A stretch of 64,000 bases of DNA, taken from an uncultured Acidobacteriota bacterium. GTDB lineage: Bacteria > Acidobacteriota > Blastocatellia > RBC074. Shown here piece after piece: positions 10,819 through 13,899 of the stretch (position 1 is its first letter; the number at the start of each line of letters is the position of its first letter). Both the position numbers and the translations under genes were made by a program. The notes under the pieces are model-generated. The model saw nothing but the letters and a program-made list of their open reading frames with translations, was not told where the DNA came from and ran no database searches. Where the stretch lies: NCBI GenBank assembly GCA_963796275.1, contig CAWCKY010000001.1:1120001-1184000 (forward strand), read 5' to 3'.

Positions 10819-12017
10819 GTACTTTGGCAACTAAGTCTTCAGATATCTTGAATTATCGGGCAAAACGTTCTGATAATGACGATTCAATTTGTTTCTCGCA
10901 GACTCGATCGAAAATTGCCAGTTGATTTTGATCTTCTTTTCGTTACGTTCTTTGATAATCGCCGAGACATCTCTCTCCAGTTGCTTAATAGTCGGGATGC
11001 GCCGGTTTAAACACTGACGCGCCACCGCCGAGAATTCACACTCGATCATGTTGAGCCAACTGGCAGACTTGGGCGTATAGTGAAACTCGAAACGTTGCGC
11101 CAGCGCAAAGGCCTCCGCCGCCGGCAAGTTTTGATAGAAGGAACCGGCGTGGTGGGTGTTTAAATTGTCCAGCACGAGTCGAATCTTTTTGGCCTCCGGA
11201 TATGCTGCTGCCAGTCTCTGAGCGAACTGCGTGAACTCTTTCTTAGTACGTTGCCAAGAGACCTGCGCGAGTCTTTGCCCGGTCAGTGGTTCGATGGCAG
11301 CTAGCACTGCACACGATCCGTTCTTCTGATAAGCGTAATGCTCTTTGCGGACTTGGCCGCTTTGCATCGCCAGCGGTTCAACCTCCTCCCCGATCAAGAA
11401 GCACGGGCGCTCGTCGAAGCAGACCACCGGGTAGTTTGGATCATAGGCCAGCGCATACAACCGGAGAATCTCCTCCATTTGCGCGAGAAACTTCGCGTCG
11501 ATCTTACCAAGACACCAAGTCTTGTTGAGGTGCGGTTTCAGTTCGTTTTTTTCAGGATGTTGCCAATATGGGTCTTGGATATCTCTTCGCAATAACCCAT
11601 CTCGACCACCTTATCGGCCAACAACCGCAAAGTCCAACGCACATGCCCTTCGGGCGCTTCGCTGCAGGCCAAGGCTGTGATCTTCGCTCGCAACTTGCCG
11701 TCGATCTCCGGCGGACGTCCCGACCGCGGGGCATCTTCCAGGCACTTGAGGCCTTGCTCTTTGTACTTATCACGCCAGGCCATGACCGTCACTCGGCTGA
11801 CGCCGAGGGTTTCGGCTACCGCTTCGAGTGTCTTGCCGCGATCAAGTTCGAGCAAGCCCGTGGCTCGCTTGAAAGTTTTGGCCGGTAATTTCCCCTTGGA
11901 GATCAGGGACTCCAGATAGTCCCGGTCTTTTGCTTTTAATTTGACGTGCCGTTTTTTCATTTTCCCATGCTCTGGGAATGGTGATCCGCGTGTCAAATCA
12001 CATAGTTGCCAAAGTAC
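10819..12017 (-). mobile_element. IS630-family insertion sequence, apparently intact
   Basis: Perfect 15-bp inverted repeats gtactttggcaacta (10819-10833) / tagttgccaaagtac (12003-12017); split HTH and DDE ORFs. Confidence 0.93.
10831..11960 (-). CDS. IS630 transposase (orfA HTH + orfB DDE), joined by a -1 frameshift
   Basis: orfA PRSGRP, WTLRLL; orfB CFDE, LDNLNTH, SWLNMIE; slippery AAAAAAAC on the minus strand at 11552-11545. Confidence 0.9.
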
Positions 12018-12320
12018 TGAGCAACTATGATCCTATTTAGTTTTCGAAATAAGTCCCCTGAATGGAGACTGCCAATACATACTTATAAGATTTAGTAATG
12101 TCTGGAAATGTAGCGAAACTGTAGATCACTATCTTCATTTTTCTACTCATAGACACCCCTGATCTGCTTCGGAAGAGCCGGATGTTTGTAGGATTCGATC
12201 CAATCTCTAATCGGCTCCAAGGGCCGGATGTATAATCTACCGCGCCAACCGTTATCGCCTTCACTCCTATGACGCTTTTTACACTGTCACAATCCTATTT
12301 CCGAGCCGCTCGCGAGCGAG

Positions 12321-12350
12321 TTGATTTGATCGCATCGATTCTGTTAGAAA
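12321..12350 (+). promoter_or_regulatory. Candidate sigma70 promoter for the T-box/aspS transcript
   Basis: TTGATT-N18-TAGAAA with TG before the -10; places the start site just 5' of Stem I. Confidence 0.4.
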
Positions 12351-12358
12351 TAAGTTAA

Positions 12359-12588
12359 CTCATTGACGAGGACAGACCCCTCCGAGAGGCTTTCTCGAAA
12401 CGGAAGCTGATATGAACGCATCAGCAGGCCCTAGTAGAGAAAGACGTCACGCTACGAGACAGCGCAAACGAGAGCCGCATCGGTCGGAAGCTGGATGGCA
12501 CCGCCGCAATAAGATTCGAAGGATTTGTGGTTCCAGCGGAAATTCTCCGGATAAACCGGATAACCTGGTAAAAGGATTTTCCGCTATG
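12359..12588 (+). ncRNA. Translational T-box riboswitch, Asp (GAC) specifier, ultra-small Stem I
   Basis: K-turn Stem I with GAC loop; Stem II with GAA/AGUA; IIA/B pseudoknot; T-box AAGCTGGATGGCACCGCC; antisequestrator; SD-sequestering hairpin. Confidence 0.85.
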
Positions 12589-13899
12589 GAACAAACATTC
12601 AAGCAGCGCGCGCTCATTACTACCCTCGATCAATTCATCGATCAGGAAGTTCTTCTTCGAGGCTGGGTCTACCGGCTTCGCCTCCTGGCCAAAACTACCT
12701 TCATCGTCATCAGAGATTGTTCGGGAGACGCGCAGTGCGTGGCCGAATCCGAATTAATCAAAGACCATCATCTCAAGCTCGATGATTGCATTGAGATACA
12801 GGGGTGCGTCAGGGCCGATCAGCGCTCAAAAGCAGGCTATGAAGTTCTGATTAACCAGGTCAGAGTGTTGAATCGCTCGGCCACCGGTTTACCATTCAAC
12901 TCGTCCTCGAAGATTGAAGCGGTCGGGCAGGAGACCTTGATGGAATACCGTCCTCTGGCGGTTCGCAATGAGGCGATCGGAGATGTGTTTCGGGTTCAGG
13001 CCGCGGCGCTGAATTATTTCAGGGAATATCTGGCGAGCCGGCGCTTCACGGAGATCATCACCTCGAAAATAGTAGCATCCGGGACTGAAGGTGGAACGAA
13101 TCTCTTCGAGCTGAAATATTTCGACCGCGTGGCCTATCTGGCGCAGAGCCCTCAGTTCTACAAGGAGCATGGAGTCGCGGGTTTCGAGCGAGTCTATGAG
13201 ACGGGGCACGTTTACCGTGCGGAGCCTCACGCGAGCAGTCGCCACCTGACCGAGTATTACTCGCTCGATTTCGAGGTCGGGTTCATCGATGGGCCGGAGG
13301 ATGTCATTCAGATCGAGCGAGAGCTACTGTCCTACATCTTCGAGCGACTCAACCAAGAGTACGGACATATTCTTGAGCGGTATAGAGAAAATCCACTCCC
13401 GTCGATGCTCGAAGTTCCGATCTGGGAGTTCGGCCGATGCCTCGAACTTCTGAAAGAAAACTTCGGCCGGACGGATCTGACAGATGACCTCGATCCGGAA
13501 GGGGAGCGGCAGTTATGCGCTCTTGTGGAGAAGGAGGCGGGAGTCGCCGCAGTCTTTGTGATCGGTTATTCGCTCGCTAGCCGGCCTTTTTACACGGCGC
13601 CGCGCGAAACGGGAGGAACGCCAGGGGCGGCGCAAAGCTTCGACCTTTTGTTTCAAGGAGTCGAGATAACGACCGGCGGACAGAGATTACATCGCAGGGA
13701 AGATCTCGAGGCGGCGCTGCGCGGACGCGGGATTGATCCGGTCGGTTTTGAGAGCCATCTCAAAATGTTCGAGCTGGGTATGCCGCCGCATGGCGGGCTC
13801 GCCATCGGGCTCGAACGTCTGACGAGTCAAATCCTCGGACTGCGCAATATACGTGAAGCAACGCTCTATCCGCGTGACCGCTATCGGATAACGCCTTGA
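12586..13899 (+). CDS. aspS: Aspartyl-tRNA synthetase, archaeal-type (short form)
   Basis: OB-fold GWV, EGGTNLF, YLAQSPQFYK, YRAE, GMPPHGGLAIGLERL, YPRD; SD aagga before ATG 12586. Confidence 0.92.
   Translation: MEQTFKQRALITTLDQFIDQEVLLRGWVYRLRLLAKTTFIVIRDCSGDAQCVAESELIKDHHLKLDDCIEIQGCVRADQRSKAGYEVLINQVRVLNRSATGLPFNSSSKIEAVGQETLMEYRPLAVRNEAIGDVFRVQAAALNYFREYLASRRFTEIITSKIVASGTEGGTNLFELKYFDRVAYLAQSPQFYKEHGVAGFERVYETGHVYRAEPHASSRHLTEYYSLDFEVGFIDGPEDVIQIERELLSYIFERLNQEYGHILERYRENPLPSMLEVPIWEFGRCLELLKENFGRTDLTDDLDPEGERQLCALVEKEAGVAAVFVIGYSLASRPFYTAPRETGGTPGAAQSFDLLFQGVEITTGGQRLHRREDLEAALRGRGIDPVGFESHLKMFELGMPPHGGLAIGLERLTSQILGLRNIREATLYPRDRYRITP

Follow-up and report, generated by a model that had tools for sequence, protein, structure and literature searches.

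A leader upstream of an accessory, archaeal-type aspartyl-tRNA synthetase (AspRS) gene is very probably a translational T-box specific for tRNA-Asp that controls this gene. The window, meaning the whole stretch of 64,000 nucleotides analysed, corresponds to C1:1120001-1184000 of a 9.46-Mb genome in seven contigs. Judged by its relatives, the host is an acidobacterium, because the nearest AspRS sequences were found in Blastocatellia MAGs (81-89% protein identity), in agreement with the "probable acidobacterium" of a preliminary description of this DNA. Comparative sequence evidence supports a real, divergent T-box; tRNA binding, charge sensing and the effect on translation are what we infer from sequence and folding.

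Structure of the leader

Positions 12357-12598 folded as a T-box, with all six elements listed in the preliminary description in their positions (Table 1). Stem I, for which a K-turn and a GAC codon in the terminal loop had been proposed, was in place at 12359-12388 and its helices covaried in relatives. Stem II with its S-turn was likewise borne out, all 13 counted pairs showing double changes (seven in the lower helix, two in the middle, four distal), as was the antisequestrator at 12490-12537 with its bulge at 12496-12502, the helices of which were 100% and 97.7% paired across the family. The pseudoknot stood in part: the cgct/agcg pairing (IIB) was retained (88.6% paired, double changes at 4/4 pairs), and the proposed gtc/gac partner was rejected at 62.2% paired, no better than shuffles; the family-wide helix IIA is CGU/ACG at 12445-47/12454-56 (94.9% paired). 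Similarly, the Stem III register gccg-cat-cggt could form in the window and was rejected for the family, being 66.1% paired against 96.4% for 12475-78/12484-87, where 4/4 pairs were double-changed. Support for the predicted structure is comparative, as the single-sequence fold of the window leader is not unusually stable (z -0.79).

Table 1. Features of the leader and the regulated gene, in window coordinates
Feature	Position	Strand	Details
Putative promoter	12321-12350	+	-35 TTGATT 12321-26, 18-nt spacer, -10 TAGAAA 12345-50; read from the sequence
Stem I	12359-12388	+	C-helix 12359-61/12386-88; helix 12368-71/12379-82; loop ACAGACC 12372-78
Stem I K-turn		+	3-nt bulge 12362-64; GA 12365-66 against GA 12384-85
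Specifier GAC	12375-12377	+	in the 7-nt terminal loop 12372-78
Stem II	12390-12443	+	lower helix 12390-96/12437-43; pairs 12402-03/12429-30; distal helix 12406-11/12420-25
Stem II S-turn	12397-99, 12433-36	+	GAA opposite AGUA
Stem IIA/B pseudoknot	12445-12464	+	IIA 12445-47/12454-56 (CGU/ACG); IIB 12450-53/12461-64 (cgct/agcg)
Linker and Stem III	12470-12487	+	linker GAG (conserved RAG) 12470-72; Stem III 12475-78/12484-87
Antisequestrator	12490-12537	+	A1 12490-95/12532-37; bulge UGGCACC 12496-12502; A2 12503-07/12527-31
Predicted sequestrator	12526-12597	+	12526-12548 with 12574-12597; shares 12526-12537 with the antisequestrator
Regulated gene	12586-13899	+	437-aa class II archaeal-type aspartyl-tRNA synthetase, second AspRS of the genome

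The putative promoter would place the transcript start at about 12357, the foot of Stem I. A strict consensus promoter scan of the leader region found none. Across the family, a TANNNT (-10-like) box ended 2-13 nt before Stem I in 35/72 leaders versus 6/72 in a control window, an enrichment suggesting that the transcript begins at Stem I.

Conservation and covariation

Relatives were collected by searching one genome per species, and the best 80 of 113 loci encoding a related AspRS were kept. A GGAUGG[C/U]ACC core lay 50-115 nt upstream of the orthologous gene at 73 of these 80 loci. A covariance model built from the family's leaders (R1) added L027, with the bulge UGGCAUC, so that a leader was found at 74 of the 79 loci having upstream sequence among the best 80 of 113 (L076 has none). 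With the same model no leader was found at L077, L078, L080, L081 and L082; these five genes clustered as one group (SH-aLRT 99) in a quick maximum-likelihood protein tree with midpoint root.

The window leader and those of 69 loci were aligned (70 leaders). Five loci were set aside: L003 because of its tandem duplication, L051 and L060 because they carry large insertions, L040 because its 5' half is missing, and L027 because it came to light afterwards. Both GA dinucleotides of the K-turn, the loop AGACC and the AG of the RAG linker were invariant in 70/70, as was most of GGAUGG.ACC. The preliminary description had proposed covariation across homologous aspS leaders as a check, and it was found: of the 2898 pair cells in a 42-pair structure, 96.8% were standard, compared with 85.8% after column shuffling (0/500 shuffles reached 96.8%) and 37-45% with slid partners, and double changes occurred at 30 of the 42 pairs. 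Folding the alignment with RNAalifold, with no structure imposed, gave 41 pairs, 31 with compensatory changes, and recovered the same Stem I, Stem II, IIB, Stem III and antisequestrator. In Stem I, CUC/GAG was replaced by CCU/AGG in 3/70 leaders and GAGG/CCUC by AAGG/CCUU in 4/70. Both IIA/B helices were supported in 66/70.

Several members depart from the common plan. The entire IIA/B region (columns 124-150) is missing from L021, L053, L061 and L065 (Terriglobia or Solibacteraceae), which keep the other modules. In L003, the closest relative, Stem III and the antisequestrator are tandemly duplicated (1238-1513), with the bulges UGGCGCC in the first copy and UGGCACC in the second. L040 (1200-1500) retains only Stem III and the antisequestrator, with unrelated sequence in place of Stem I to IIA/B; a deletion or an assembly join could account for the loss. 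L034 has ACG where its relatives have ATG (about 1501-1535), and no in-frame start codon was found after this leader.

Relation to the Rfam T-box model

Rfam 15 at the gathering threshold gave no match over the whole 64-kb window, and the T-box model RF00230 did not match the window leader even at E 10. Of 15 relatives tested, 12 gave no match with RF00230 and three did (L008, 55.7 bits; L039, 53.2 bits; L055, 51.3 bits; E 2e-9 to 3e-8), all below the gathering cut-off of 93 bits. The Infernal check with this model that had been suggested earlier had a divided outcome, with full-length sub-threshold matches in 3/15 relatives and none for the window leader itself. These alignments spanned model positions 1-219, with 74 distal Stem I positions reduced to 5 nt, and were in register at the K-turn, lower Stem I, the GAA/AGUA of Stem II, IIA, the AG before Stem III and the UGGNACC bulge. 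They placed GAC at the canonical specifier position, with a single base between it and the 3' strand of the lower helix. No other Rfam family covered the tested leaders. From the full-length matches it follows that the family is a divergent T-box lying below the 93-bit cut-off; together with the covariation they uphold the identity first proposed. Standard annotation overlooks the leader because its score falls under that cut-off.

Feature by feature, the leader has the K-turn, matching specifier, Stem II S-turn, IIA/B, Stem III and UGGN bulge of a T-box, and its K-turn Stem I with the specifier in the apical loop, followed by Stem II and IIA/B, has the form of a translational T-box with short Stem I. 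A mutually exclusive sequestrator using the 3' strand of the antiterminator was seen by folding only. In 70/70 leaders a C (12378 in the window) stands where a purine normally follows the specifier, in keeping with the caveat voiced in the preliminary description, and the distal Stem I platform for elbow docking is missing, Stem I ending in a 7-nt loop. This platform is described as absent from most known translational T-boxes too (PMC7583486). Because the purine after the specifier has become C in all members and the platform is missing, affinity for tRNA may be low.

The regulated gene and its surroundings

The product of the ORF at 12586-13899 scored 467.5 bits on NCBIfam NF003483 (aspartate--tRNA(Asn) ligase, archaeal-type AspRS) and comprises the Pfam domains tRNA-synt_2 and an OB anticodon domain; the closest solved structure is 1N9W, Thermus thermophilus AspRS2 (E 2.3e-91). 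A bacterial-type AspRS (756.9 bits), an AsnRS (496.7 bits) and GatB are all present in the same genome, and the AspRS downstream of the leader is therefore an extra copy. The regulated gene had accordingly been rightly read as an aspS (NF003483), and what has to be amended is that it is an accessory archaeal-type copy and not the housekeeping one. The family name (NF003483) and the nearest structure (1N9W) suggest that the enzyme may be of the non-discriminating type.

The accessory aspS is monocistronic and adjoins an IS630-like transposase. Directly upstream of the leader, on the opposite strand, overlapping ORFs with HTH_32/HTH_29 (11538-11996) and DDE_3 (10831-11592) occupy 10831-11996 (-) and together suggest an IS630-type transposase translated via a frameshift. 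At 26 loci a divergent ORF of about 430 aa lies upstream of the leader, for example L046 3-1292 (-); it had no NCBIfam match and a weak cytochrome c match only, without a clear family.

Distribution

According to record labels among the best 80 of 113 loci, carriers belong mostly to Acidobacteriota and further to Pseudomonadota, Bdellovibrionota, Cyanobacteriota with Melainabacteria, and Ignavibacteriota; Gammaproteobacteria and Ignavibacteria are also among these labels. Single carrier MAGs were seen in three further phyla, and MAG labels can be wrong. An occurrence outside Actinobacteria, as first suggested, thus holds for Acidobacteriota and, by record labels, for several Gram-negative phyla. 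In all five other carriers tested, of different phylum labels, a bacterial-type AspRS over the cut-off was also present. Using R1, one full leader per genome was found in the own genome and in the five other carrier genomes; RF00230 revealed no other T-box at E 0.01 in those five and none over the cut-off in the own genome. Two RF00230 matches elsewhere in the own genome (L001 and L002; 16.9 and 13.2 bits) were taken as noise, R1 matching neither. A descriptor of the bulge and two helices hit 13 places in the own genome, one being the leader and the other 12 being judged from printed sequence only.

In 150 other genomes of the phylum, R1 found no match (strict filters, 17 candidates scored per genome), and for that sample the leader is therefore a sporadic accessory trait. 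Leader and gene, as far as sequence comparison goes, behave as one accessory unit across several phyla. When metagenomes were scanned for a 15-mer taken from the T-box core, two members (L155 and L175) were recognised among 80 listed of 119 stretches; on other specifiers the scan was uninformative.

Two records deserve mention. In the genome of L075 (Bdellovibrionales MAG), the bacterial-type AspRS is in two adjoining pieces of 204 and 431 aa (G155:C1:399554-401295), which suggests a frameshift or sequencing error. L035 and L068 encode near-identical AspRSs (end branches 0.015 and 0.018) in MAGs labelled Verrucomicrobiia and Acidiferrales, respectively; either the labels conflict or the gene was transferred very recently.

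Codon specificity and predicted switching

With Aragorn, 47 tRNAs were found in the genome, among them a single tRNA-Asp(GUC) with anticodon loop CUGUCAC and 3' end G73-CCA. GAC is complementary to its GUC anticodon, and UGGC of the bulge to its GCCA. The variable base of the bulge was C in 60 and U in 10 of the 70 leaders, never A or G, which is just what predicted pairing with G73 allows. The Asp specificity put forward at the outset is supported by these comparisons, GAC being present in 70/70 leaders, an AspRS gene following downstream and UGG[C/U] matching G73 of tRNA-Asp(GUC).

On the + strand between 12200 and 12700, no stem followed by a T-run was found, as the preliminary description had claimed for the absence of a terminator. 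A start codon could be assigned in 70/72 leaders and lay 19-48 nt after helix A1 in most. The competing hairpin that had been proposed was present and longer than first stated: in the window, 12526-12548 paired with 12574-12597 (-27.0 kcal/mol), covering the Shine-Dalgarno (SD) GGA at 12574-76, within AAGGA 12572-76, and the UG of AUG 12586-88. When the region from the A2 3' strand to codon 4 was folded, nearly all leaders formed a long hairpin in which GUGGUUCCA paired with AUGG.AACCAC and the spacer with the SD region. In 67/70 leaders the MFE fold paired four or more nucleotides of the antisequestrator 3' strand with start positions -4 to +13, the exceptions with almost no such pairing being L039, L065 and L075; the mean was 8.67 versus 3.30 in shuffled sequences, with a dG of -18.8 versus -11.3 kcal/mol. 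With the A1 5' strand included, A1 was absent from the MFE structure in 63/70 leaders and present in 7/70, and a forced antisequestrator cost 4.8 kcal/mol on average relative to the sequestrator state. In a swap control for covariation of the sequestrator outer helix, own partners (-8.27 kcal/mol) differed weakly from crossed ones (-7.34 kcal/mol), own being better in 44/70. The evidence for the outer helix is accordingly its conservation and folding energy, and part of that conservation could stem from conserved N-terminal codons. Folding models thus support control at translation initiation, as originally claimed: a terminator is absent, most start codons lie 19-48 nt beyond A1, and the competing helix covers both SD and AUG.

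Discussion

As we picture the switch, the decoding half (K-turn Stem I with the GAC heptaloop, Stem II S-turn and IIA/B) would bind the GUC anticodon of tRNA-Asp, while the discriminator half (RAG linker, Stem III and UGGC bulge) would pair with a free G73-C-C-A end, which only uncharged tRNA offers. Pairing of the discriminator with uncharged tRNA-Asp would stabilise the antisequestrator at 12490-12537. Without uncharged tRNA, 12526-12537 would join the more stable sequestrator with 12574-12597, burying SD and AUG and blocking initiation. Because uncharged tRNA-Asp would favour the antisequestrator over the structure that buries SD and AUG, extra AspRS would be produced when charging of tRNA-Asp drops.

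Other readings of the leader were weighed against a translational switch for tRNA-Asp. The loop ACAGACC contains overlapping triplets, so that AGA (Arg), ACC (Thr) or the near-cognate tRNA-Asn might be considered; tRNA-Asn likewise has G73, the NCBIfam name (aspartate--tRNA(Asn) ligase) denotes a non-discriminating type, and a T-box controlling an additional clostridial aspS has been cited as responding to Asn (PMC4206432). Against these, the RF00230 alignment puts GAC at the canonical specifier position, and the overlapping triplets CAG and ACA vary among relatives. Moreover, tRNA-Thr(GGU) has U73, mismatched to UGGC, no tRNA-Arg(UCU) is among the 47 tRNAs found, and the GUU anticodon of tRNA-Asn would not match the first base of GAC, AAC occurring in 0/70 leaders. 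We consider it improbable that any of these tRNAs is the one read.

Nor does an effect on transcription, by intrinsic or Rho-dependent termination, recommend itself in place of translation initiation. Most known T-boxes attenuate transcription, according to the Zhang 2020 review, the competing hairpin has a favourable energy (-27.0 kcal/mol), and Rho could gain access to an mRNA whose translation is blocked; the chance of this is nevertheless slight, given that no stem followed by a T-run occurs on the + strand within 12200-12700, that the competing helix includes SD and AUG and ends inside the coding sequence, and that in most leaders 19-48 nt separate A1 from the start codon. Still less probable is a protein-binding operator, such as AspRS feedback on a tRNA-like mimic, or a structure that acts independently of tRNA. 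Such control does occur at some synthetase genes, E. coli thrS with its synthetase feedback on a tRNA-like mimic being an example. The loop here bears the codon GAC and not the anticodon GUC, and the leader therefore complements tRNA-Asp and does not mimic it; in addition, the leader has the full set of T-box modules, and relatives are matched by RF00230 at E of about 1e-9. The translational T-box for tRNA-Asp thus remains the preferred reading.

A wider and more doubtful proposal is that the family forms an undescribed T-box class with the widest phylum range among translational T-boxes. The minimal Asp switch and the archaeal-type AspRS might then travel as a self-contained mobile cassette, the only T-box in each carrier genome examined, which would supply a rescue synthetase upon a collapse of tRNA-Asp charging. 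Natural aspartyl-adenylate mimics of the microcin C type, which could inhibit the housekeeping AspRS, are a plausible candidate trigger.

T-boxes are treated as a Gram-positive device in the Zhang 2020 review, the translational ones having been identified mostly in Actinobacteria, and the TBDB description has its translational model applied only to Actinobacteria reference genomes and to class I hits with truncated Stem I. In the table of a 2008 survey (PMC2494555), Cyanobacteria and Bacteroidetes/Chlorobi are without T-boxes, and 125 Proteobacteria account for two. A 2014 paper (PMC4206432) calls a second AspRS rare in bacteria and refers to a T-box controlling an additional aspS in a clostridium. 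Searches of the full-text literature, with the main comparative surveys and supplementary tables outside their scope, yielded no earlier description of this leader, which those surveys and tables may list. While the mechanism is known, probably new here are the Asp codon, the accessory archaeal-type AspRS, the Gram-negative phyla, the heptaloop specifier lacking the purine and the sequestrator reaching into the coding sequence. The family represents a conserved, covarying T-box in phyla where T-boxes are hardly known. With it there are two independent families of miniature tRNA-decoding modules, the one described here having a different codon followed by a pyrimidine. This makes it possible to ask which traits of the ileS structures hold more widely, and it suggests that soil bacteria commonly possess an inducible second AspRS as an accessory trait.

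Comparison with known systems

Asp-specific canonical transcriptional T-boxes exist in Firmicutes. Bacillus subtilis thrZ, also in a Firmicute, is a T-box-controlled second synthetase gene, induced on falling cognate charging and regulated at transcription; the accessory aspS resembles it in being a second synthetase gene under predicted T-box control. The aspS T-box of Clostridium acetobutylicum, a Firmicute, is reportedly transcriptional, with a long Stem I and with Asn and Glu codons. Likeness to this extra aspS, which is found with gatCAB, lies in a T-box on an additional AspRS in a genome having other routes to Asp-tRNA and Asn-tRNA, as the C. acetobutylicum case of Saad 2012 and 2013 is presented in PMC4206432 and PMC2494555; unlike there, the gene stands alone here and the leader carries an Asp codon.

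TBDB includes Asp in its table of specificities. Canonical transcriptional T-boxes (RF00230) share the module order and align end to end with three relatives, whereas the present leaders lack 74 distal Stem I positions, score 51-56 bits against a cut-off of 93 and have no terminator; their helix A1 is CUGGA, where the consensus given in PMC11297988 is AGGG. Close in form are the actinobacterial translational ileS T-boxes (Mycobacterium; TBDB class II), which, as described in PMC10651847, PMC11297988 and PMC7583486, likewise have a short K-turn Stem I with the specifier in the apical loop and no elbow platform, together with a Stem II S-turn, IIA/B, the RAG and UGGN discriminator and sequestration of the ribosome-binding site. 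Compared by description, the ileS leaders carry AUC where GAC is found here. Here the leader precedes an accessory archaeal-type aspS, and its hosts are Acidobacteriota together with, going by record labels, other Gram-negative phyla; the present leaders also differ from the ileS T-boxes in their heptaloop with C after the codon and in a predicted sequestrator that pairs with AUG and the first codons as well.
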